A stretch of DNA of 31,257 nucleotides. It comes from a virus. The notes under the pieces were generated by a model, which searched no databases, had not been told where the DNA came from, and worked only from the letters and a program-made list of their open reading frames with translations. The stretch is taken from UHGV virus genome UHGV-0008471, one strand, 5' to 3'. How positions within the stretch are numbered: position 1 is the first letter of the stretch; the number at the start of each line of letters is the position of its first letter. Positions 5,562 through 28,683 of the stretch are shown here, piece after piece. A program made the translations under genes and the position numbers.

Positions 5562-6530
5562 TTAGTAGGTTATTTTTGTTGCGAATACTTCGCCTTTTAC
5601 GATGGCTGTTATGATATTTTTAGCAACATCTTCTGATGCGCCAACCTTGATAAGGTCAGCAAGTATTTTGTTATTTACTTCTTTCCGGTGAGCTTTATCC
5701 TTTGCTCTACGCTCTTCTTCGTCCTTGATTCTTTTTTCTTCTGCTATTCTGGCTTGCTCTTTTGCTTCAGCCTCGCGCCGGATTCGTTCAGCCTCCTCCT
5801 GTGCTTTTCGGCGTTCTGCTTCAATTGCCGCCTGCTTTTCTCTTTCAGCTCGTTCTGCTGCCTCTTTTGCTTCGCGCTGTGCTCGTTGCTCGGCTTCAAT
5901 GCGTTCACGCTCTGCACGTTCCGCTGCGGCCTTAGCTTCTGCTTCTCGCCTTGCTGCTGCTTCAATTTCGGCTTTTGCCTTTGCTTCGGCTTCAGCTCTG
6001 GCTTTCTCTTCAGCTTCTCTTTTTAAGCGTTCTTCATGCTCTCGCTTTTCCTGCTCCGCTTTGAGTCTTGCCTCTTCTCTTTTGCGGTCAAATTCGCGAT
6101 CCATCAAAATCGCTATTTCATGGTCAGACTCAATTTGCTTTGCGAGAGCTTCAGCTGCTGCCTTAGCTTCTTCTTCGGCTTTAATCCGCGCCTGTTCTTC
6201 CTCATAATCAGTAAGAGGCTGGCGCGCCTTGGCTTTCAGCTCATCAAGGCGATCACGCACTGTCTTGCGGTTGGCATCAATTAGCTTTGGAATTTCCTTC
6301 AGTTCAGCAACAAGGTCTTTGCCAAGACCATCGAGATATGTTTTCGTCTGCGCAACTTTATACGCCAGAGAAGCGATCTCCTTTCTGCCCTTTGCCGTTG
6401 TGATATCAGGCACAAAGGACATAACTTCACGTTCAACCTTTTGAAGGATTTCTTCAATCTGGTCGGCAGACTGAAATACAGTCATTGCATTTGCTTTTTC
6501 AATAACAACTAAATCTGTTACTTCACTCAT
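5562..6530 (-). CDS. Coiled-coil phage protein with Glu/Ala/Arg/Lys-rich low-complexity centre (322 aa)
   Basis: Strong AAGGAGG SD; about 150 aa of EAKA/ERAE heptad-like repeats flanked by globular ends; often annotated TolA-like. Confidence 0.7.
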   Translation of the reverse strand: MSEVTDLVVIEKANAMTVFQSADQIEEILQKVEREVMSFVPDITTAKGRKEIASLAYKVAQTKTYLDGLGKDLVAELKEIPKLIDANRKTVRDRLDELKAKARQPLTDYEEEQARIKAEEEAKAAAEALAKQIESDHEIAILMDREFDRKREEARLKAEQEKREHEERLKREAEEKARAEAEAKAKAEIEAAARREAEAKAAAERAERERIEAEQRAQREAKEAAERAEREKQAAIEAERRKAQEEAERIRREAEAKEQARIAEEKRIKDEEERRAKDKAHRKEVNNKILADLIKVGASEDVAKNIITAIVKGEVFATKITY

Positions 6531-16966: not shown

Positions 16967-17290
16967 ATGAAGATGCCAGAAAAACATGACCTGTTAGCCG
17001 CCATTCTCGCGGCAAAGGAACAAGGCATCGGGGCAATCCTTGCGTTTGCAATGGCGTACCTTCGCGGCAGATATAATGGCGGTGCGTTTACAAAAACAGT
17101 AATCGACGCAACGATGTGCGCCATTATCGCCTGGTTCATTCGTGACCTTCTCGACTTCGCCGGACTAAGTAGCAATCTCGCTTATATAACGAGCGTGTTC
17201 ATCGGCTACATCGGTACTGACTCGATTGGTTCGCTTATCAAACGCTTCGCTGCTAAAAAAGCCGGAGTAGAAGATGGTGGAAATCAATAA
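16967..17290 (+). CDS. S: Holin, lambda S type (107 aa; dual-start Met1/Met3)
   Basis: [41 protein letters not shown]...; class I holin with three transmembrane segments. Confidence 0.9.
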
Positions 17291-17750
17291 TCAACGTAAG
17301 GCGTTCCTCGATATGCTGGCGTGGTCAGAGGGAACTGATAACGGACGTCAGAAAACCAGAAATCATGGTTATGACGTCATTGTAGGCGGAGAGCTATTCA
17401 CTGATTACTCCGATCACCCTCGCAAACTTGTCACGCTAAACCCAAAACTCAAATCAACAGCAGCCGGGCGCTACCAGCTTCTTTCCCGTTGGTGGGATGC
17501 CTATCGTAAGCAGCTTGGCCTGAAAGACTTCTCTCCGAAAAGCCAGGACGCTGTGGCATTGCAGCAGATTAAAGAGCGTGGCGCTTTACCGATGATTGAT
17601 CGCGGTGATATTCGTCAGGCAATTGACCGTTGCAGCAATATCTGGGCTTCACTGCCGGGTGCTGGTTATGGTCAGTTCGAGCATAAGGCTGACAACCTGA
17701 TTGCAAAATTCAAAGAGGCTGGCGGAACGGTCAGAGAGATTGAGGTATGA
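17274..17750 (+). CDS. R: Endolysin, lambda R-type lytic transglycosylase (158 aa)
   Basis: [39 protein letters not shown]... matches lambda R as recalled. Confidence 0.9.
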
Positions 17751-18214
17751 GCAGAGTCACCGCGATTATTTCCGCTCTGGTTATCTGCATCATCGTCTGC
17801 CTGTTATGGGCTGTTAATCATTACCGTGATAACGCCATCGCCTACAAAGAGCAGCGCGACAAAAATGCCAGAGAACTGAAGCTGGCGAACTCGACAATTA
17901 CTGACATGCAGGTGCGCCAACGTGATGTTGCTGCGCTCGATGCAAAATACACGAAGGAGTTAGCTGATGCGAAAGCTGAAAATGATGCTCTTCTGCGGAA
18001 GCTTGATAATGGTGGCAGGGTGCTCGTCAAAGGAAAATGCCCTGTGCCATCCTCTGCCGAAACCTCCAGCGCCTCCGGCATGGGCAATGATGCCACCGTC
18101 GAACTCTCTCCAGTTGCTGGACGAAACGTTCTCGATATCCGGGACGGAATTATCCGCGACCAAACAGCACTGAGAACGCTTCAGGAATACATTAGGACGC
18201 AATGCCTTCGATGA
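17747..18214 (+). CDS. Rz: Rz i-spanin (155 aa) with lambda-like N-terminus and divergent C-terminus
   Basis: N-terminal transmembrane segment and coiled-coil up to about AENDAL resemble lambda Rz; the remainder differs. Confidence 0.8.
17967..18173 (+). CDS. Rz1: Rz1 o-spanin lipoprotein embedded in the +1 frame of Rz (68 aa)
   Basis: Signal peptide plus lipobox VAGC; proline-rich [16 protein letters not shown], parallel to lambda Rz1. Confidence 0.7.
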
Positions 18215-18389
18215 TAGCGATAATTTTACTCATCATCCTTCACATCTGGCTCTGTAGACAGGGTGGTGATCACTTCTGGAGTGAATCCAGATTAAACATC
18301 TCATTGCTGATGCTTGATATTGAGCATCTGGCGCGCGGTAAGGGGCTGCGTTGAGATAAGAGCCAGTCATTACAAATACCAGGATTTAG

Positions 18390-18414
18390 CCTCGCATTCG
18401 CGGGGCTTTTTTAT
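18390..18414 (+). terminator. Intrinsic terminator downstream of the lysis cassette
   Basis: CCUCGC-AUUC-GCGGGG (one G-U pair) followed by CUUUUUUAUAU. Confidence 0.55.
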
Positions 18415-18642
18415 ATCTGCAGTAAACCGCGCATCGCAGCGCGTAACAATCCCGAGTCTTTCAGAAAGCTGAGCCTGAGAACTGCCGTATATGGTGGCGA
18501 CCATCTCGGGGCGGCTTTTCTGTGCGAACAGGCTCATCTTTCTAAAAGGTAAAGACGCAATGAACTACCCAACCGTTGTTAACGATATAGATTCAGAGAC
18601 CTAATTTTTGTAGCAAACAACGATCCGGTTACAGATTCTTTT

Positions 18643-19101
18643 ATGGTGGCAAAAGCATTTGGAAAGCTGCCGAAGAACGTGGTTCGTGACATTGAACGAA
18701 CCATAGAAGCTTGCCCTCCTGAGTTTGATACAAAGCTCAACTTTGAGCTTTGCTATAAAAACAATGAGTTACAGAATGGTAAGCCGCAAAAATTCTACCG
18801 TCTCCGCAAGGATGGGTTGATGCTTTTGGTTATGTCCTACACCAAAAAAGAAGCAATGCGTATCAAAATTGCTTACATCAACGCATTCAACTGGATGTAC
18901 GCCATGCTTCAGGTTGGTCATCGTCAATTTGAAGAAGAGAGAAATGCCGTAATGCTGGAGTACATGAAAGAGAAGGATGTTGCCAGCATGTCAGGCCGCC
19001 TGCTTAATCGCTGGGGAAAAATTAAGAAGCCTCAGCTACTGGCGAGAATTGAACGCCTTGAACAGCACGGGCAAACCGTAATCCCCGGACTCACCAATTA
19101 A
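18643..19101 (+). CDS. Rha-family phage regulatory protein, possibly N-terminally truncated (152 aa)
   Basis: C-terminal part of a Rha-like domain (YRLRKDGLMLLVMSYTKKEAMRIKIAYINAFNWM); no SD before the ATG and no alternative in-frame start back to the stop at 18580. Confidence 0.5.
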   Translation: MVAKAFGKLPKNVVRDIERTIEACPPEFDTKLNFELCYKNNELQNGKPQKFYRLRKDGLMLLVMSYTKKEAMRIKIAYINAFNWMYAMLQVGHRQFEEERNAVMLEYMKEKDVASMSGRLLNRWGKIKKPQLLARIERLEQHGQTVIPGLTN

Positions 19102-19328
19102 CGGCAGTACAGCGAAACAACCCAAGCCAGAAAGTGGGGAAATAACACTGGCAGCCACTGAAAGATGAACCTCCTGCCTTATGGCAAAAAAGATTCTTTG
19201 TGGTGGCGGACTGATGGAAAGACATCGGTTATTGCAGAGACCATTCAATGAGTGGTCTCGACAATGGCTTATACCCTACACGGGATAACTTAACTGATAT
19301 CCCTTTTAACGGATAAACGGAGCCAACA

Positions 19329-19571
19329 ATGGCAGAGATTATTCCCATGACTGAAGAACAGAAATTCCAGTTAGAGATTTACAAGCTGGTCATGAACCAG
19401 AACGCAGCCGCAGAGGAAGCATTTCAGTTCATTGGCACTGACGAACTGAAGCTTGAGCTATTCAAAATTCACTTCCAGTCAGGCGGCGCTAATTCAGATA
19501 TCACGACCCGCACTATCGAAGCGGTGCGTAAATCGAAGGAAGCGTTAGACCTGTTCACCACCGGAGCATAA
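19329..19571 (+). CDS. Hypothetical protein (80 aa) upstream of terminase
   Basis: GGAG SD; helical acidic sequence; no family recognised. Confidence 0.5.
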   Translation: MAEIIPMTEEQKFQLEIYKLVMNQNAAAEEAFQFIGTDELKLELFKIHFQSGGANSDITTRTIEAVRKSKEALDLFTTGA

Positions 19572-19573
19572 AC

Positions 19574-20014
19574 ATGGCGCGCCCAACAAAGTATCAAGAG
19601 GCGTATGCCGAACAGGCACGCAAACTGTGCTTGCTGGGCTACACCGATGCAGAGCTTGCTGATTTCTTCGAAGTCAGTGAGTCAACTATTAACAAGTGGA
19701 AGCTTGATTATCCTGAGTTTTCGGAGTCCATAAAAAAGGGTAAGGCCGTCGCTGATGCAGAAGTTAGTGACCGTCTTTATCAACGCGCTATGGGCTTCGT
19801 GGCTCCAGACATCGATATTCGTGTTATTGAAAACAGAATTGTCGAAACTCCTCTTGAGAAGTATTACCCGCCTGATACAACAGCTGCCATCTTCTGGCTT
19901 AAGAACCGACAGAAGGATAAATGGCGCGACAAGGTTGATCACGAGCTAACAGGCAAAGACGGCGGCGCAATCCAGATTGAAACATCACCGATGAGTACTC
20001 TATTCGGAAAATGA
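19574..20014 (+). CDS. Terminase small subunit (146 aa)
   Basis: Directly precedes and overlaps TerL; C-terminus GKDGGAIQIETSPMSTLFGK matches Sf6-type TerS as recalled; N-terminal HTH-like DNA-binding part differs. Confidence 0.75.
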   Translation: MARPTKYQEAYAEQARKLCLLGYTDAELADFFEVSESTINKWKLDYPEFSESIKKGKAVADAEVSDRLYQRAMGFVAPDIDIRVIENRIVETPLEKYYPPDTTAAIFWLKNRQKDKWRDKVDHELTGKDGGAIQIETSPMSTLFGK

Positions 20015-21426
20015 CCTCGATTAATCCTATCTTTGAACCGTTCATTGAGGCGCATCGCTACAAAGTCGCCAAAGGCGGTCGAGGTAGCGGTAAATCATGG
20101 GCAATTGCGAGACTGCTTGTTGAAGCGGCGCGTCGGCAGCCAGTGCGTATTCTCTGCGCTCGTGAACTGCAAAACAGTATCAGCGATTCGGTAATCCGGC
20201 TGCTTGAAGACACCATAGAGCGTGAAGGGTATACGGCTGAGTTTGAAATTCAGCGTTCCATGATTCGTCATCTCGGGACGAATGCTGAGTTCATGTTCTA
20301 CGGCATCAAAAACAACCCGACGAAGATTAAATCGCTCGAAGGCATTGATATCTGCTGGGTGGAGGAAGCGGAAGCGGTAACGAAGGAATCATGGGATATC
20401 CTGATACCAACCATCCGCAAGCCATTTTCCGAAATATGGGTGAGCTTCAACCCGAAAAACATCCTCGACGATACCTATCAGCGATTCGTAGTAAACCCTC
20501 CCGATGATATTTGTCTGCTGACGGTGAACTACACCGACAACCCGCACTTTCCTGAAGTTCTCCGTCTGGAGATGGAAGAGTGTAAACGCAGAAACCCGAC
20601 ACTGTATCGTCACATCTGGCTTGGTGAGCCAGTAAGCGCAAGTGATATGGCAATCATCAAACGTGAATGGCTTGAAGCTGCAACCGATGCGCACAAGAAA
20701 CTCGGATGGAAAGCGAAAGGCGCTGTTGTCTCTGCGCATGACCCATCAGATACAGGGCCAGATGCTAAAGGTTATGCATCGCGCCACGGTTCGGTAGTTA
20801 AGCGCATTGCCGAAGGCCTGCTGATGGACATCAATGAAGGTGCTGACTGGGCTACTTCGCTGGCGATTGAAGACGGCGCTGACCATTACCTGTGGGATGG
20901 TGATGGTGTTGGTGCCGGGCTACGCAGACAGACAACGGAAGCGTTCTCCGGCAAGAAAATCACCGCCACGATGTTCAAGGGCAGCGAATCGCCATTCGAT
21001 GAAGATGCGCCGTATCAGGCCGGAGCATGGGCTGATGAAGTAGTACAGGGCGACAACGTTCGCACTATTGGCGATGTATTTCGCAATAAGCGAGCGCAAT
21101 TCTATTACGCGCTGGCTGACAGGCTGTATCTGACATATCGGGCGGTTGTTCACGGTGAGTATGCAGACCCCGACGACATGCTGAGTTTCGACAAAGAAGC
21201 GATAGGCGAGAAGATGCTGGAGAAGCTGTTTGCAGAACTGACGCAGATTCAGCGCAAATTCAATAACAACGGGAAGCTGGAGCTTATGACTAAGGTCGAA
21301 ATGAAGCAGAAGCTCGGTATTCCATCTCCTAACCTGGCTGATGCGCTGATGATGTGTATGCATTGCCCGGAGTCGGCTGCGCAACCCGACTATTCCAGTT
21401 ACTCAATTCCTTGTGGTGTAGGTTGA
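20011..21426 (+). CDS. Terminase large subunit (471 aa)
   Basis: Walker A KGGRGSGKSW near the N-terminus; C-terminal nuclease domain; closely resembles Sf6/P22-group TerL as recalled. Confidence 0.9.
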   Translation: MTSINPIFEPFIEAHRYKVAKGGRGSGKSWAIARLLVEAARRQPVRILCARELQNSISDSVIRLLEDTIEREGYTAEFEIQRSMIRHLGTNAEFMFYGIKNNPTKIKSLEGIDICWVEEAEAVTKESWDILIPTIRKPFSEIWVSFNPKNILDDTYQRFVVNPPDDICLLTVNYTDNPHFPEVLRLEMEECKRRNPTLYRHIWLGEPVSASDMAIIKREWLEAATDAHKKLGWKAKGAVVSAHDPSDTGPDAKGYASRHGSVVKRIAEGLLMDINEGADWATSLAIEDGADHYLWDGDGVGAGLRRQTTEAFSGKKITATMFKGSESPFDEDAPYQAGAWADEVVQGDNVRTIGDVFRNKRAQFYYALADRLYLTYRAVVHGEYADPDDMLSFDKEAIGEKMLEKLFAELTQIQRKFNNNGKLELMTKVEMKQKLGIPSPNLADALMMCMHCPESAAQPDYSSYSIPCGVG

Positions 21427-21427
21427 T

Positions 21428-23626
21428 ATGGCAGAAAAAAAGATGACTGACTGGCATCGCAAGGTGCTGTGCAACTTTGATAATGCCTGGTCAGCAACGC
21501 AGGATATGCGTGAGCAGATTATTGAGGCTCAACGTTTCGTCCGGGTATCCGGCGCACAGTGGGAAGGCAGCACAAACGCTGGTTACTCATTTGATGAAGG
21601 CAGGTTTGAGCATTATCCGCGCTTTGAACTGAATAAGATTGCCCGTGAATGTGATCGCATCATTGGCGAGTATCGACAGAATCGCATAAGCGTTAAATTC
21701 AGGCCGAAGGACGATAAGGCATCGGAAGCGTTAGCCGAAAAGATGAACGGCAAATTCCGCGCTGACTATCAGGAAACATCCGGTGGCGAAGCGTGTGATA
21801 ACGCATTTGATGATGCTGTAACGGGAGGATTCGGTTGTTTCCGCATGTGTGCCGATTACGAAGATGAAATGGATCCGAGTAACGAGCAGCGACGCATCAG
21901 CCTTCTTCCTGTTTACGACCCAGCGACATGCGTCTTCTTCGATCAGGACAGCAAGCAATATGACCGCTCTGATGCTATGTGGGCTATGGAAATGTTCTCC
22001 ATGACGCCCAAAGCGTTCGAGGCTGAATACCCTGATTCCATCGCGGCAAGCCTTTCTCGTGATGACACTGGCACTCAATATGACTGGTCAACGCCTGATG
22101 CTATCTATGTTGGTCGCTACTACGAAGTTCGCATAGAGAAGGTGAAGCTCACGGCGTGGCGCAACCCTGTTAGCGGAGAAACGGCAATCTATGATGAAGA
22201 GCAAATCAAAGATATTGTCGACGAGCTAACCGATGGTGCATTCGAACTGATCGGTGAGCGGACAGTGAAGAAACGCAGAGTTTATTGCGGTCTTCTGTCT
22301 GGCGCTGAATGGCTGGAAGAGCCGAAGCGTATTCCTGGCGAACATATTCCTCTCATCCCGGTATATGGGCGTCGCTCATTTGTTGATAATCAGGAGCGAA
22401 TCGAAGGCCACGCAGCAAAAGCGATGGATGCGCAGCGTCTTGAGAACCTGATGGTTTCCATGATTGCAGATAACGCTACTCAGGCTGGCGGTGATGGCAT
22501 TCCTGTAGTTGATGTTGACATGATTCCTGGTACTCTCGCCACTCATTGGGCGGAGCGAAACAAAAAGCGCCCGGCGTTCCTGCCGATGGTCAGTCTGAAA
22601 AACAAAAACGGAGATATTACAGCGCAGGCTCAGGTCAGCAGTTATACGCCTCCGACACAAATGCCTCCTGCTCTTGCCGGGCTATTACAGTACACCGGAA
22701 CGGCTATTCAGCAAATTACAGGTGCGTCGCAGCTTGAGAACATGCCGAGCAACGTCGCTACCGATACCGTTGATAGCATCTTTAACAGGATGGACACGCA
22801 GTCATATATCTACATGGACAACATGGCTAAATCCATGCGTCGCGCTGGCGTTGTGTGGCTTTCTATGGCGCGTGAAGTCTATGGCAGCGATACGCCGATG
22901 CGTATCGTTAATGAGGACGGCAGCGATGACGTGGCGCTGATGACTGGTGAAGTGGTTGACCGTCAGACAGGGCAGGTTATCGCGCTTAACGACCTTTCGC
23001 AGGGTAACTATGAAGTGACTGTCGATGTCGGTCAGTCGTTCGCTACTCGCCGTGATGCAACGGTTAAGTCGTTACTTTCCATGCTGGCACTTATCCCACC
23101 AGGAACGCCGAAGCACGACCTTGTATCGTCGATGATTCTCGACAATATGGACGGCGAAGGGATGGACGACCTGAAAGAATACAACCGCAATCAGTTGCTT
23201 CTGTCTGGAGTTATCAAGCCGAGAACGCCAGAAGAACAGCAGATGGTTGAGCAGGCGAAACAACAACAGGCCAGTCAGCCAGATCCGGCTATGGTTGCTG
23301 CGCAAGGTCAGCTTCTTGCTGGTCAGGCTGAATTGCAGAAAGCGCAGAACGAGCAGGCAGCCATTCAGGTTAAAGCATTCCAGGCACAGACTGATGCTCA
23401 GGTTGCAGCGGCAAACGTTGTGAAAATCCTCGCATCTGCTGATAGCCAGCAGAAATCTGATATCCGCGAGGCTCTGAAACTGCTCGGACAGTTCCAGCAA
23501 CAGCAAGGAGACAATGCCCGTGCTGATGCAGAGCTTGTCCTGAAAAGTCAGGCACAGGGCCATGCGCAGCGCATGGACATCAGCAGCATCCTGCAAAAAT
23601 CAACTCAGCAACAACCACAGCAGTAA
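21428..23626 (+). CDS. Portal protein (P22 gp1 type, 732 aa)
   Basis: Large protein immediately after TerL; Gln-rich helical C-terminal extension typical of P22-like portals. Confidence 0.85.
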   Translation: MAEKKMTDWHRKVLCNFDNAWSATQDMREQIIEAQRFVRVSGAQWEGSTNAGYSFDEGRFEHYPRFELNKIARECDRIIGEYRQNRISVKFRPKDDKASEALAEKMNGKFRADYQETSGGEACDNAFDDAVTGGFGCFRMCADYEDEMDPSNEQRRISLLPVYDPATCVFFDQDSKQYDRSDAMWAMEMFSMTPKAFEAEYPDSIAASLSRDDTGTQYDWSTPDAIYVGRYYEVRIEKVKLTAWRNPVSGETAIYDEEQIKDIVDELTDGAFELIGERTVKKRRVYCGLLSGAEWLEEPKRIPGEHIPLIPVYGRRSFVDNQERIEGHAAKAMDAQRLENLMVSMIADNATQAGGDGIPVVDVDMIPGTLATHWAERNKKRPAFLPMVSLKNKNGDITAQAQVSSYTPPTQMPPALAGLLQYTGTAIQQITGASQLENMPSNVATDTVDSIFNRMDTQSYIYMDNMAKSMRRAGVVWLSMAREVYGSDTPMRIVNEDGSDDVALMTGEVVDRQTGQVIALNDLSQGNYEVTVDVGQSFATRRDATVKSLLSMLALIPPGTPKHDLVSSMILDNMDGEGMDDLKEYNRNQLLLSGVIKPRTPEEQQMVEQAKQQQASQPDPAMVAAQGQLLAGQAELQKAQNEQAAIQVKAFQAQTDAQVAAANVVKILASADSQQKSDIREALKLLGQFQQQQGDNARADAELVLKSQAQGHAQRMDISSILQKSTQQQPQQ

Positions 23627-23716
23627 TTAACCCATAACGTGCAATGGCTGTCTTTATGAGGCCTGGCACCCTATTGCCTTCCGATGGGCTGAACATCGAG
23701 TAAACAGGGGTAACAA

Positions 23717-24610
23717 ATGGACCAGATGGCAGAAAACACACCAGAAGTTGAAATCGAAACCGACGCGTCAGAGCAGATTCCTGATGATGTCGAACTGGCT
23801 GAAGAAGTCGAAACAGAAGATGGCAGTGAGTCCTCCGGCAATGATGCAGAGGAAGCTACTGAAACTGATGACGACGAATCAGAACAGGAATTCTACTTTG
23901 GTGACGAAAAGCTGGATTCGCCAACCAGCGAAGATGGCGCAGAGCATGGACTGGTAAAACACCTGCGCAAGACGATTAAAGAGAAAGACCGTGAGCTGAA
24001 AGAGCTGATGCGTCAGTCTCAGAAACCCGTCGAGCAGCAGCCGGTAATCACTCAACCACCGCGAATGCCAAAACTGGATGATGAGGACATCGGTTTCGAT
24101 GAAGAAATCTACCAGCAACGCATGGCTAAGTGGGCAGAGGATAACGGCAAATACCAGCAACAGGAGATGGCTCGCAAGCAGAAGGAGCAGGAGCTTCAGG
24201 CTGCTTATCAAGAGCGATTATCCAAATATCAGCAACGTGTTAAGGCTCTCAAGGTTCCTGGCTATCAGGAAGCAGAACAGGCCGTACTCGAGGAAATCCC
24301 CATCGAGACACAAAACGCGATCCTGTTTGAGTCAGAGAAGCCGGAAATCGTTGTTCTGGCGCTCGGTCGCAACGCTGAACTGCGCAAGCAACTGGCAGAA
24401 GCTACCAACCCCGTAGCAATTGGTCGTCTGCTGGAACGTATCGAATCGAAGGCCAGAATCATGCCAAAAGCAAAAACCACGGCAGCCACAACCCCGACAG
24501 TTAAGGGGAGCAACGGCGCAGTAATCAATAACCTCGACAAACTGAAAGCCAAGGCGCTGGAAACTGGTGACTGGACGCCGTATTTCGCCGCTAAAAAGGC
24601 AAAAAAATAA
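23717..24610 (+). CDS. Scaffolding protein (P22 gp8 type, 297 aa)
   Basis: Highly acidic N-terminus, long charged helical body and basic C-terminal tail; sits between portal and coat. Confidence 0.8.
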   Translation: MDQMAENTPEVEIETDASEQIPDDVELAEEVETEDGSESSGNDAEEATETDDDESEQEFYFGDEKLDSPTSEDGAEHGLVKHLRKTIKEKDRELKELMRQSQKPVEQQPVITQPPRMPKLDDEDIGFDEEIYQQRMAKWAEDNGKYQQQEMARKQKEQELQAAYQERLSKYQQRVKALKVPGYQEAEQAVLEEIPIETQNAILFESEKPEIVVLALGRNAELRKQLAEATNPVAIGRLLERIESKARIMPKAKTTAATTPTVKGSNGAVINNLDKLKAKALETGDWTPYFAAKKAKK

Positions 24611-24628
24611 CCTATCGGAGCATTAAGC

Positions 24629-25882
24629 ATGGCTAACCAATTAGCAAAAGACCTTGAAATCATGTTCGAAAACTACGTTGAAGGCTTTGAGGCCGCCTGC
24701 GTAGTTTCCCGTAACGCTAAAAAATTCCGTCCCGGTGATACAGCAATGCAGCGAGCAGGTGATGTTCTGTATCGTCCGCAGCATTACCACATGAACATTG
24801 AGGAAGGCCTAGACCTCAGCGGCAAAACGCCAACAGCACTGGTTCAGCGCCTTGTTCCTTCTGTGTTCAAGGAGCCGAAAAACATACTGTACACTCTGGA
24901 TGCGCGTGAAATGCGTGACCCGGAACATAAAACTGAAGCTGGTCGCGCTGCAGGTATGCGCCTTGCTGCACAGATTGACTCTGACCTGATTTCCATGGTC
25001 ACGCAGCGTGCTACTAACGTGATCACGATGGCTGACTCAACCACAGGAACACAGGGCCGTGATTTGTGGAACTGTGCGGCAGGTATTGATGCCACCATGA
25101 CGGCGATTGGTGTACCTCAGGGTATCAACCGTCACTCTTTCTGGAACCCCTTCAACTACAAAGACCTTGCTGGCGAGCTTGGTCACCGTGCCTATGCTCA
25201 GGGTGCAACCCTGACAGCATACGAAAAAGCGCAGATCCCTCCGGTTGCGTCCTTCGATAGCTACAAGACCGATATTTCTGGTCGTGTTCCGAAGGGTACA
25301 GCAACTTCCCTGACGCTGGCGGCTGAACCTGCGCACAAGGTTGAAGCGAAAGATGCCAACGATATGCCAGTGGATAACCGACAGGGGACCATTACGGTAT
25401 CTGCATCTGGTTTGCAGGTTGGCGATGCGTTCACCATTGCTGGCGTGAATTCCGTACACCAAATCACCAAAGATACCACCGGGCAGCCGCAGGTATTCCG
25501 CGTTCTGGCAGTAAGCGGAACGACAGTAACTATCTCCCCGAAAATTCTGCCGCCTGATAACGCTGATGTCGCCAGCCGACCATATGCAAACGTTGATGCT
25601 AACGCGGCAAATGGTGCAGCAATTACCATTCTCAACAAAAATGCCGCACCGGCTAACCTGTTCTGGGCTGATGGTTCTGTTGAGCTGATGTACGGCAAAC
25701 TGGCGTTCCCGACTGGTCAGGGTCCACAGGTAATGACAGCAACCACCGAGCAGGGCGCTACGCTGATCATGTCTTACGCCTTCGACCACATCAAAGGCGT
25801 AACCACTGCTCGTTTCACCACTCTGTACGGTTGCTCTGTACTTGTTCCTGAATATACGGGCATCGTTATTGCCGGGCAGTAA
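24629..25882 (+). CDS. Major capsid (coat) protein (P22 gp5 type, 417 aa)
   Basis: Position after scaffold and size; strong ribosome-binding context; sequence typical of P22-like coat proteins. Confidence 0.85.
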   Translation: MANQLAKDLEIMFENYVEGFEAACVVSRNAKKFRPGDTAMQRAGDVLYRPQHYHMNIEEGLDLSGKTPTALVQRLVPSVFKEPKNILYTLDAREMRDPEHKTEAGRAAGMRLAAQIDSDLISMVTQRATNVITMADSTTGTQGRDLWNCAAGIDATMTAIGVPQGINRHSFWNPFNYKDLAGELGHRAYAQGATLTAYEKAQIPPVASFDSYKTDISGRVPKGTATSLTLAAEPAHKVEAKDANDMPVDNRQGTITVSASGLQVGDAFTIAGVNSVHQITKDTTGQPQVFRVLAVSGTTVTISPKILPPDNADVASRPYANVDANAANGAAITILNKNAAPANLFWADGSVELMYGKLAFPTGQGPQVMTATTEQGATLIMSYAFDHIKGVTTARFTTLYGCSVLVPEYTGIVIAGQ

Positions 25883-25923
25883 TTTTGGTGGGGCTTCGGC
25901 CCCATTTTTATTGGGAGAAGACA

Positions 25924-26112
25924 ATGGCACGAACAATGCTCTATAAGCCTGGCAACATGATCACCTGTGGTCAGTTTGCTGTCGATTACATCATTGTTGA
26001 TGACGAAGAAGTTAAATCTCACCTGAAAAAAGGTTGGGTAAAAACTCCTGAAGAAACCGCAACGAAGCAAAAAGTGGCTAAGGCGGAAGAAGATGGCGAA
26101 AACGAAGGGTGA
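25924..26112 (+). CDS. Small hypothetical protein (62 aa) after the coat gene
   Basis: ATG at 25924 preceded by GGGAGAAG; the upstream extension in the ORF track lacks an SD. Confidence 0.5.
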   Translation: MARTMLYKPGNMITCGQFAVDYIIVDDEEVKSHLKKGWVKTPEETATKQKVAKAEEDGENEG

Positions 26113-26554
26113 TCTCGTTCTAAAGGCTTTACGAAAAGCCGGGCTGTATTCCAATGCCACGTTGACAGATGCTGACCCTCAGGCAATTGAAGATGCCATT
26201 AATGACCTCGAAGACATGATGGCAGCATGGCAGGCTAAAGGTATCGAGCTTGGGTATCAGTTTGCTGATACAGAAAACGGCATCATGCCGTTACCTGACG
26301 ATGATTCAGGTATCCCTGCATGGGCAAATGATGGCGTCGCGTTGAAACTCGCTGTGCAAGTGTGCATGGATAACGTCATTCAGCCGTCAGACGCTCTCCT
26401 TACCGCTGCTGACAGTGCATATCAGACAATCTGTATCGCTTTAACCAAAATACCACCACTTGAGCGGCGAAATGACATGCCTCGCGGTAGTGGTAACAAA
26501 AGCGCGTTTACGTGGAATCGGTTTTACATCGAGAAAGATGATCCGAGTACGTGA
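26093..26554 (+). CDS. Head completion / packaged-DNA stabilisation protein (P22 gp4 homologue, 153 aa)
   Basis: N-terminus KTKGDLVLKALRKAGLYSNATLTDADPQAIEDAINDLEDMMAAW parallels P22 gp4 as recalled. Confidence 0.75.
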   Translation: MAKTKGDLVLKALRKAGLYSNATLTDADPQAIEDAINDLEDMMAAWQAKGIELGYQFADTENGIMPLPDDDSGIPAWANDGVALKLAVQVCMDNVIQPSDALLTAADSAYQTICIALTKIPPLERRNDMPRGSGNKSAFTWNRFYIEKDDPST

Positions 26555-26563
26555 GGTGAATAA

Positions 26564-27982
26564 ATGCCGATTCAGCAACTTCCGCTTATGAAAGGTGTCG
26601 GCAAAGACTTTCGAAACGCCGACTATATCGACTATCTGCCAGTGAATATGTTGGCTACACCCAAAGAAATCCTGAACAGCAGCGGATATCTTCGCTCATT
26701 CCCGGGCATTGCCAAACGTTCTGATGTGAACGGTGTATCTCGAGGCGTCGAGTACAACATGGCGCAGAGTGCTGTTTATCGCGTGTGTGGCGGCAAGCTC
26801 TACAAAGGCGAAAGCGAAGTCGGTGACGTCGCCGGAAGTGGTCGTGTATCAATGGCGCATGGTCGGACATCACAGGCGGTAGGCGTTAACGGGAAACTGG
26901 TCGAATACCGCTATGATGGCACGGTTAAAACCGTCTCAAACTGGCCTACAGACAGCGGATTCACGCAGTATGAGTTAGGTTCTGTTCGTGACATTACGCG
27001 CTTACGCGGGCGTTATGCGTGGTCAAAAGACGGAACTGATTCATGGTTTATCACTGACCTTGAAGACGAATCGCATCCTGACCGTTACAGCGCACAATAT
27101 CGCGCAGAATCGCAGCCGGACGGCATCATCGGTATCGGCACATGGCGAGACTTCATCGTCTGCTTTGGTTCATCGACGATTGAATATTTCTCCCTGACTG
27201 GTGCAACCACAGTTGGTGCTGCTTTGTATGTCGCCCAGCCATCGCTGATGGTGCAGAAAGGCATTGCCGGGACTTACTGCAAAACGCCATTCTCTGATTC
27301 ATATGCGTTCATCAGCAATCCGGCAACAGGTGCGCCGTCTGTGTACATCATCGGCTCCGGTCAGGTGTCATCAATCGCCAGTGCGAGCATTGAGAAAATC
27401 CTCCGCTCCTACACTGCTGATGAACTGGCTGATGGCGTGATGGAATCGTTGCGGTTTGATGCTCATGAGTTGCTGATTATCCATCTTCCGCGTCACGTCC
27501 TCGTGTACGATGCATCTTCAAGCGCCAATGGTCCGCAATGGTGTGTGCTGAAAACAGGACTGTATGATGATGTGTACCGCGCTATCGACTTCATTTACGA
27601 AGGCAATCAGATAACGTGCGGCGATAAGCTGGAGTCCGTGACCGGGAAATTGCAGTTCGACATCAGCTGCCAGTATGGGCTACAGCAAGAACACCTGTTG
27701 TTTACACCCCTCTTCAAAGCTGAGAACGCCAGATGTTTTGATCTGGAGGTGGAATCATCGACGGGTGTTGCTCAGTACGCGGACCGCCTTTTTCTCTCTG
27801 CAACCACTGACGGCATAAATTACGGACGTGAGCAGATGATTGAACAGAATGAACCGTTCGTTTACGACAAACGTGTTTTGTGGAAGCGAGTCGGGCGCAT
27901 CAGGAAAAATGTCGGCTTCAAATTGCGCGTTATCACGAAGTCACCAGTCACTCTGTCTGGCGCTCAGATAAGGATTGAGTAA
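26564..27982 (+). CDS. Tail accessory / DNA stabilisation protein (P22 gp10 homologue, 472 aa)
   Basis: Gene order gp4-gp10-gp26 and size matching P22 gp10. Confidence 0.75.
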
Positions 27983-28683
27983 TGGCGGATTCGAATCTCA
28001 ATGTGCCGGTAATCATTCAGGCTACACGACTCGACACATCAGTCCTTCCACGCAATATCTTCTCGCAGTCGTATCTGCTTTACGTTATCGCACAGGGCAC
28101 TGATGTTGGTAACGTGGCGAACAAGGCCAACGAGGCCGGACAGGGTGCTTATGATGCACAAGTCAGGAACGATGAGCAGGATGTGATTCTGGTCGATCAC
28201 GAAGAAAGAATTCGTCAGCTCCGCATCGACGTAGACGACCATGAAATCCGTATTACTGCAAATACCAATGCAATCGCGTCGCTGGATGTCAGACTAACCA
28301 CGGCTGAAGGTGAAATAGTCACCTTGCAGGCTGATGTCAGTGCTCTCGATGGTAGAGTGACGGAGGCTGAAGGAAATATTTCTGCATTGCAGGACGATTA
28401 CGTATCGAAAACAGCAACAGCAACACAATCGCTGGCATCCCCCCTCAACGTAGCAACATCCTATTCAGTCGGCGGAACCAAGGTTATCGGTGCTCGTCAG
28501 ACAGGATGGACAGCGGCAACCGGAACGGCACTCCTCGGCGCATTCAACGCTAACCAGGCATACACGGTCGGCACTACGTACACACAATCCGAAGTCGCAG
28601 CTCTCGCTACAGGTTTGCAGCAGGCGCGGCAGCGTATTCTGGCGCTTGAAACAGCACTTAGATTACATGGGCTGATTGACTGA
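27982..28683 (+). CDS. Tail needle protein (P22 gp26 homologue, 233 aa)
   Basis: Trimeric coiled-coil needle signature; N-terminus [25 protein letters not shown] and C-terminus RLHGLID parallel P22 gp26 as recalled. Confidence 0.8.

Follow-up and report, generated by a model that had tools for sequence, protein, structure and literature searches.

A frameshifted rha gene and a structured leader RNA at the lysis-to-packaging junction of a P22-like phage

The viral genome UHGV-0008471 (31,257 nucleotides (nt), the whole of which we call the window) carries, between its lysis and packaging genes, a copy of the phage gene rha that has been frameshifted by the loss of a single base and is not truncated at its 5' end. 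Sequence comparison identifies the source as a temperate P22-like phage (Lederbergvirus) with CUS-3 and phiv205-1 among its relatives. The locus is the body of a 180-amino-acid (aa) Rha-family gene, the counterpart of P22 rha (orf201) and of phi80 rha, and it represents a disrupted allele of the family rather than an intact member. An earlier sequence-only reading of positions 18215-19328 had reported an isolated 152-aa open reading frame (ORF) with a Rha-like domain and had taken it for a 5'-truncated accessory insertion or remnant. We are confident in a different account, in which rha occupies its normal place in the late operon, has lost one T from a TTT run and is, as a likely consequence, a null or hypomorphic allele. 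The data establish the identity and position of the gene, the frameshift, its inheritance in a phage lineage and the structure of a leader RNA that precedes it.

The deletion can be read directly from the comparison with close relatives. CUS-3, Sf101 and 720R6 read GATTTCAG where the window reads GATTCAG, leaving TT at 18592-18593 (+ strand) in place of TTT. In a 226-column alignment of the 5' end of rha, the resulting 1-nt gap is the sole difference from CUS-3. It is also the only indel relative to CUS-3 across 18215-19328, where DNA identity is 99.9% to CUS-3 and 99.4% to Sf101 and the matched stretches of these phages are 1-2 bases longer. Over a 10-kb block (18182-28211) the missing T is the only unbalanced indel relative to CUS-3, and frame-breaking indels are not over-represented in the rest of the window in the same comparison.

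The genuine start of the gene lies upstream of the ORF that had drawn attention. A Shine-Dalgarno (SD) sequence, AAAAGG (18544-18549, +; read from the sequence), stands 10 nt before an ATG at 18560. From the equivalent ATG, the translations of the relatives begin MNYPTVVNDIDFRDLIFVANNDP, and CUS-3, Sf101 and 720R6 each carry one 180-aa ORF (MNYPTVVNDIDFRDLIFVANNDPVTDSFMVAKAFGK...). The window conserves the start codon and codons 1-11 (MNYPTVVNDID), followed by an out-of-frame SET and a TAA at 18602, so that reading from 18560 ends after 14 codons and the residual 5' end of rha (18560-18604, +) is a dead-end ORF. The remainder is displaced into the -1 frame, where sense codons run from 18583 to 19101 (+) and the first usable start is the ATG at 18643. 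The ORF opened there (18643-19101, +) encodes 152 residues, its first methionine being Met29 of the intact 180-aa protein, and it is identical to residues 29-180 of the Rha of Sf101 and CUS-3. The sequence-only reading was right that this ORF exists, that it belongs to the Rha family, as Pfam now confirms, and that it has neither an upstream in-frame start nor an SD: no ATG, GTG or TTG is found in frame between the stop at 18580-18582 and 18643, and no SD precedes that ATG. Truncation, by contrast, is not what the alignment reveals, as every 5' codon is present and merely shifted by the 1-nt deletion. The conserved start of the family does lie in the window, 28 codons upstream of Met29, but the window copy is out of frame with it.

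Domain searches place the protein firmly in the Rha family. Phage_pRha (PF09669) is matched by residues 2-85 of the 152-aa ORF (E=7.9e-20; 71.7 bits, for a Pfam cut-off of 29.9) and ORF11CD3 (PF10549) by residues 97-148 (E=3.2e-26; 91.7 bits, cut-off 25). The Rha domain, previously described as C-terminal, is therefore the N-terminal one, and ORF11CD3 forms the C-terminus. With the in-frame upstream codons added, the Phage_pRha match rises to 77.2 bits and spans profile positions 1-89, and the intact form matches PHROG 518 (Rha-like transcriptional regulator) at E=7.9e-81. A single-sequence AlphaFold prediction of the 172-aa in-frame translation was poor (predicted local distance difference test (pLDDT) score of 44), and a model of the intact protein based on a multiple sequence alignment was used instead (pLDDT 77). 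It predicts strands at residues 17-19 and 22-26, helices at 27-34, 38-51 and 58-61, a wing at 62-83 and, after the wing, two long C-terminal helices. As modeled, intact Rha would consist of an N-terminal β-hairpin and winged-helix Rha domain followed by a C-terminal helical ORF11CD3 domain. A Foldseek search of the PDB returned only a weak winged-helix or PadR-like resemblance (best E=0.23), and a sequence search of the PDB only a marginal MarR match (E=0.32). Overall protein identity is 36% to P22 Rha and 21% to phi80 Rha. The gene is itself a mosaic, with an ORF11CD3 end (window 18956-19098) that is near-identical to that of P22, 52 of the C-terminal 54 residues matching and 2 differing, and a diverged N-terminal half. 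The hkbK gene of HK620 and the ant gene of POCJ13 also end in ORF11CD3.

The intact gene is the norm among relatives. Close relatives are encoded on 336 viral contigs, and the best 80 of these loci all match residues 1-180 or nearly so, one being cut by a contig end; the 180-aa MNYP start is present in 73 of the 80. Full-coverage homologues from protein searches, annotated as Rha family regulators, are mostly 179-185 aa long. Across 44 homologues (54-87% identity), M1, D11, F12 and T25 never vary, and R13, F17 and D26 are kept in 90% or more. E. coli genomes agree: 658 match, 94 of them at 99% identity or above, and the extra base is present in all of the 60 best, which were read. The wild-type 43-mer occurs on 44 viral contigs. 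CUS-3 ECRS218_0024 is annotated at 203 aa (L001 1777..2388), from an upstream ATG equivalent to 18491 that is unlikely to be the real start because it is out of frame in Sf101 and 720R6. Annotated starts lie 23 codons upstream of the conserved SD and ATG in P22 (L144 2076..2681), likewise 23 in CUS-3, and about 12 in phi80 (L053 1916..2470). Judging by the conserved start, the rha annotations of P22, CUS-3 and phi80 are probably over-extended.

What the deletion does to the gene is a matter of inference. We consider the allele (ΔT) most likely to be null or a strong hypomorph, that is, a natural rha- mutant, because no SD serves the ATG at 18643, leaving weak reinitiation as the only way to it. 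Ribosomes starting at 18560 would stop after 14 codons in this lineage. The lost segment (residues 1-28) contains the two predicted β-strands and the first two residues of helix 1 of the AlphaFold model, and with it go the conserved residues M1, D11, F12, R13, F17, T25 and D26. The suspicion that an N-terminal helix-turn-helix is missing is not borne out: the ORF keeps the winged helix-turn-helix core, and only the 28-residue N-terminus is absent. The phage would tolerate the ΔT allele because rha is dispensable.

Several observations weigh against so complete a loss. The 152-aa ORF keeps Phage_pRha profile positions 6-89 of 91, and a truncated Rha product might keep some activity; from the sequence, residual translation of the ORF by reinitiation is conceivable. 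How rha is transcribed, and what the upstream hairpin does to its translation (both described below), we likewise infer. The ORF has also outlived more than one lesion. In other phage backgrounds, one locus (L148, GCA_002546815.1) has independently gained a T in a T5 run, shortly downstream of where the window has its deletion, and in two more (L147, GCA_014154205.1; L155, SRR3975537) a 380-bp deletion joins the equivalents of 18244 and 18625, removing the terminator, the leader and 22 codons. These three independent lesions, ΔT included, all keep the same 152-aa ORF, and this shared survival could hint at selection.

Such points would fit an alternative in which the 152-aa ORF is a functional short Rha isoform (Δ1-28) started at Met29, perhaps with altered or dominant-negative activity, and retained by selection. 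The ORF is unbroken in a lineage with up to 16 single-nucleotide polymorphisms (SNPs) per 6.4 kb, two further independent 5' lesions spare it, the Pfam Rha domain survives for the most part and ORF11CD3 in full, and only 38 nt separate 18643 from the preceding stop of the 14-codon ORF, a spacing at which reinitiation is conceivable. We nevertheless regard this isoform as unlikely. Beyond the missing SD, the family does not conserve Met29 (K in the consensus and in phi80, Q in P22), this residue falls inside predicted helix 27-34, and the two strands with their invariant residues would be gone. Recurrence of the lesions cannot be read as selection, because they were found by looking up the exact 152-aa product (present on 24 contigs), which can detect only lesions that spare the ORF and so biases the sample. 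Products that are shorter, or covered only in part, were also numerous among the results of the protein search.

An error of sequencing or assembly, concealing a phage with an intact 180-aa rha, is less probable again and in our view improbable. The difference is one of homopolymer length, and large collections lack the ΔT allele. None of 5,426 complete E. coli genomes or 50,697 phage records has it, and an exact 42-mer across the deletion finds no match in IMG/VR, GTDB representatives, JGI metagenomes or the complete E. coli genomes. Yet the run is only 3 nt long, the surrounding 10 kb have no other unbalanced indels, and the same allele recurs in at least seven separately assembled samples with slightly diverged flanks (18 of 24 contigs). 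Seven loci carry it in identical form (L146 and L149-L154, from five ENA assemblies and two Logan runs), and they are 99.69-100% identical to the window, with 0-16 SNPs over 4.1-6.5 kb. As the identical allele is found in at least seven independent assemblies, ΔT is inherited in a circulating phage lineage and is not a one-off sequencing error.

That recombination or insertion at a lysis-to-packaging hotspot left a remnant truncated at its 5' end is a very improbable reading of this locus. The junction is indeed mosaic, homology breaking precisely at the ATG of the cargo and close to its stop, and genuine 5' deletions of rha do exist in L147 and L155; but in the window the 5' end, the SD, the leader and the terminator are all present and collinear with CUS-3 and Sf101 bar one nucleotide, which refutes truncation here. 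Programmed -1 ribosomal frameshifting that would link the 14-codon ORF to the Rha body has next to no probability. The two frames are offset by -1 and share 22 nt (18583-18604), but the stretch before the TAA holds no slippery heptamer of the form X XXY YYZ, and the arrangement is unconserved, relatives carrying one continuous ORF.

A frameshifted rha is also found exactly where an rha gene is expected. The lysis-to-packaging junction of the late operon, after Rz/Rz1, is its canonical position in P22-like phages. The order is Rz/Rz1, rha, orf25, orf80 (DUF2560), orf59c and gene 3 in P22; Rz/Rz1, terminator and rha in phi80; and Rz, rha and terminase in the Stx-like phage POCJ13. The proposal of an accessory insertion or remnant was thus correct in seeing accessory cargo with a damaged 5' end at a mosaic junction, but the arrangement is that of P22 and not an unusual insertion or a remnant of recombination. 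Comparison with related phages confirmed that the slot is mosaic, HK620, epsilon34, HK106, Huey and Sf6 all differing. By BLAST, homology to HK620 and epsilon34 runs through 18564 (the cargo ATGAA) and begins again at 19079-19092, shortly ahead of the rha stop. In the same slot, HK620 carries kilA-N (hkbK) and hkbL, and epsilon34 and HK106 carry a T5orf172/MUG113 (GIY-YIG-like) gene; in Sf6 the rha slot is empty and gp66 occupies a second slot downstream. Phage Huey has a Tad2-like (Thoeris anti-defense) gene in the rha slot (L051 1022..1522), without the leader, and the junction thus also hosts anti-defense cargo. Across these phages the junction is highly mosaic, and rha is one accessory cargo gene among several, not a universal one.

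The 3' side of the slot is conserved. The spacing to the next gene had been put at 228 bp and is 227 nt (19102-19328, +), although the gene that follows is a DUF2560 gene (19329-19571) and not the terminase. This flank is a conserved linker made of two segments, 19092-19226 and 19228-19328, joined at an empty slot at 19227. BLAST break points and Pfam matches identify a second cargo slot at 19226/19228, filled by a Phage_gp49_66 gene in Sf6, Huey, L147 and L155. The linker holds a remnant of the 5' end of ST64T orf118 (ORF 19181-19288; a misc_feature in epsilon34) and is 97-98% identical in HK97-like siphoviruses with different packaging modules. Its predicted fold has z=-4.3, in a sequence too conserved for a covariation test, and several stable hairpins are predicted in it, among them GAGACCATTC-AAT-GAGTGGTCTC at about 19236-19258.

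The upstream flank is no more featureless than the linker. Besides the SD and ATG of rha, it contains a structured leader RNA (18428-18559, +) in which a small GC hairpin (18428-18443) is followed by a long, interrupted one (18457-18549). The latter is built from P0 (18457-61/18545-49), P1 (18463-68/18538-43), P2 (18470-77/18529-36), P3 (18478-83/18516-21), P4 (18484-87/18512-15) and an apical helix (18491-95/18500-04). In the basal helix, UCUUU (CCUUU in other versions) is predicted to pair with AAAGG of the SD. The 145 nt between the terminator and the ATG are common to non-homologous cargo genes. RNA folding gives z=-2.8 and -3.1 for the leader, and the same architecture is seen in nine divergent versions across several sequence types. 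The basal SD helix is predicted in six of the nine single-sequence folds, with a shifted register in the window and type-D versions. In the leader alignment, pairs between columns 41-44 and 153-158 are retained and AAAGG is kept in most versions, AAAGGA, AUAGGA and UAAGG being the variants.

Homology searches and covariation support this structure. A covariance model (R1), built from 18 sequences and a hand-drawn structure, scores 149.5 bits on window positions 18428-18571, 145 bits on phi80 and 81.8 bits on P22. Among the loci searched, it recovered the leader before every rha, kilA-N and T5orf172 cargo gene, and second copies were found before the P22_AR_N "ant" gene of POCJ13 and Stx-type contigs and before PHI80_66 in phi80; leader copies were located at L052 1-143, L053 3417-3540 and L144 2008-2156. 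An alignment made with MAFFT only had misaligned the divergent leader types (RNAalifold, -7.8 kcal/mol), and the leaders were realigned with the covariance model. In this alignment (A4), which is by construction fitted to the model, 85.6% of cells pair as against 32-47% in slid controls, 25 of 39 pairs are altered on both sides by compensatory change, and the covariation score is 0.32 as against 0.16 after shuffling, none of 500 shuffles reaching the observed value. The MAFFT/RNAalifold run, which was not fitted, recovered these helices in part and showed 8 covarying pairs. There are 154 G-U cells to 28 A-C cells, which assigns the structure to the sense RNA. Two other readings of the leader were rejected. 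An upstream ORF is not conserved, its ATG at 18491 being out of frame in Sf101 and 720R6 and absent from phi80-type leaders; and the inner hairpin is not a conserved terminator, as a U-run follows it in types A and B and not in C or D.

The leader may travel with the slot and not with the gene. By Pfam, the proteins encoded behind it are Rha+ORF11CD3, KilA-N+ORF11CD3, P22_AR_N+ORF11CD3, KilA-N+P63C and T5orf172/MUG113, that is, at least five domain architectures with four N-terminal domain types. The phages that bear it are podovirus and siphovirus lambdoids, some with two copies per genome, and their hosts are Escherichia, Salmonella, Shigella, Klebsiella, Enterobacter, Hafnia and Providencia, with one record labeled as an Actinobacillus phage. 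Rfam 15 gave no match at E≤1 for the leaders of the window, POCJ13, phi80 and P22. Text searches of the literature found no description of the leader, in a coverage to which Henthorn & Friedman 1995 did not belong. We put forward, tentatively and with somewhat less than even confidence, that this RNA of about 130 nt belongs to an undescribed family of modular, cis-acting, terminator-proximal elements that sequester the SD, are tied to the cargo slot rather than to any gene, and silence the translation of potentially toxic antirepressor-like cargo (Rha, KilA-N, P22_AR_N/Ant, T5orf172) until a trigger arrives. Processing by RNase III is one conceivable trigger and a host factor another.

Intact Rha is a non-essential, antirepressor-like regulator. 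The gene is described as a late-operon gene that is detrimental when integration host factor (IHF) is absent (PMC4936722, citing Mozola & Friedman 1985 and Henthorn & Friedman 1995), and the phi80 record annotates its rha with the note "DNA synthesis inhibition in IHF- hosts". No IHF consensus site (WATCAANNNNTTR, at most 1 mismatch) is present in 18355-18642, and window-wide such sites are fewer than chance would give (25 observed, 34.7 expected). IHF control is thus not explained by an obvious site in the leader. Late operons of the P22 type are transcribed from P_late by an antiterminated polymerase. In the window, the terminator at 18388-18414 would stop unmodified transcription, and late transcripts antiterminated by Q/gp23 would read through it and carry the leader and rha. 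The leader hairpin would then keep the cargo SD paired until opened, RNase III being a candidate opener by analogy with the lambda N leader. A gate of this kind could be the missing link to the 40-year-old observation that rha is harmful without IHF.

The remaining features of the region follow the P22-like plan. Across 17274-21426 the order is endolysin, Rz, a 50-aa ORF, the terminator, the 152-aa ORF, the DUF2560 gene and the small and large terminase genes; seen from the lysis side it is S, R, Rz, a gene-65-like ORF, terminator, rha, DUF2560 and terminase. Rz lies at 17747-18214. The 50-aa ORF (18202-18354, +) belongs to the Sf6 gene 65 family and matches PHROG 11822, of unknown function, over 50 of 50 positions (E=3.9e-38), with no Pfam match. 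Its N-terminus is hydrophobic, it overlaps the Rz stop and it is kept in P22-like phages as the left flank of the junction; a counterpart is annotated in Sf101, 720R6, epsilon34 and Sf6. The terminator that closes the lysis cassette (18388-18414, +) had been recognized earlier. It has an 8-bp stem (AGCCTCGC/GCGGGGCT), an ATTC loop and a T run, the terminator scan placing the hairpin at 18388-18407 and the T tail up to about 18414, and epsilon34, phi80 and HK106 have a rho-independent terminator annotated at the homologous site. From there to 18643 the gap, previously given as about 230 bp, measures some 229 nt. Downstream, the DUF2560 gene (+; hkbM/P22 orf80/Sf6 gene 67 type, Pfam E=1.1e-43) opens a conserved block before the small terminase and is annotated in CUS-3, HK620, Sf6 and P22. 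The small terminase occupies 19574-20014 and the large terminase 20011-21426. A minus-strand ORF at 18370-18537 was rejected as a gene; it has no Pfam match and its frame is broken by indels in relatives. Elsewhere, the window has one 322-aa ORF (5562-6530, -) where CUS-3 has two overlapping ones (ECRS218_0048 and 0049; CUS-3 35058..36027), with a 1-nt indel at about window position 6194; the split belongs to the CUS-3 record and not to the window.

The rha finding is in itself ordinary and already known, and the gene matters little here, as a natural loss-of-function or hypomorphic allele of a dispensable accessory gene. Annotators would do well to mark the 152-aa ORF as a frameshifted copy of rha. 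The one possible novelty is the leader RNA. Its presence before different genes suggests that the lysis-to-packaging slot brings its own expression control to any incoming gene. If this is true, the restraint of rha and the role of IHF become testable in simple reporter constructs.

The closest known systems are CUS-3 ECRS218_0024, Sf101 gp63 and the E. coli "Rha family transcriptional regulator" (P0002, 180 aa, 705 members), which share the flanks, the leader and the position of the window gene; unlike them, the window lineage lacks one T and has a split ORF. P22 and phi80 rha, which define the Rha phenotype, have the same Phage_pRha and ORF11CD3 domains, the same place after Rz/Rz1 and the upstream leader, whereas the window copy is diverged in its N-terminal domain and frameshifted. 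Their phenotype is described as inhibition of phage growth in IHF-deficient hosts (PMC4936722, PMC8951638). Morons and the boundary sequences (bsq) of HK620, Sf6 and CUS-3 likewise involve accessory genes swapped between conserved late-operon linkers, at a place that accepts different cargo (PMC2629481, on epsilon34, and the bsq features of the sequence records). The rha gene is not a classical moron, because no sigma-70-like promoter was found on the + strand in 17700-19700 (by a crude consensus scan that could miss weak or unusual promoters); its terminator is upstream and not downstream, and the leader is not annotated as a bsq in the CUS-3 record. At the protein level, Iyer, Koonin & Aravind 2002 are credited with describing the domain-shuffled KilA-N/Bro-N/Rha/P22_AR_N/T5orf172 regulators of DNA viruses (via PMC8951638). 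The cargo genes behind the leader all belong to this guild. To our knowledge that work covers protein domains and does not describe a shared RNA leader. In the lambda N leader, an SD-sequestering hairpin is processed by RNase III. The rha leader resembles it, by analogy, in having a long interrupted hairpin with an asymmetric internal loop, an SD in its base and a place immediately upstream of a phage regulatory gene. Unlike the lambda N leader, to which it has no sequence relationship, the rha leader is reused before unrelated genes.

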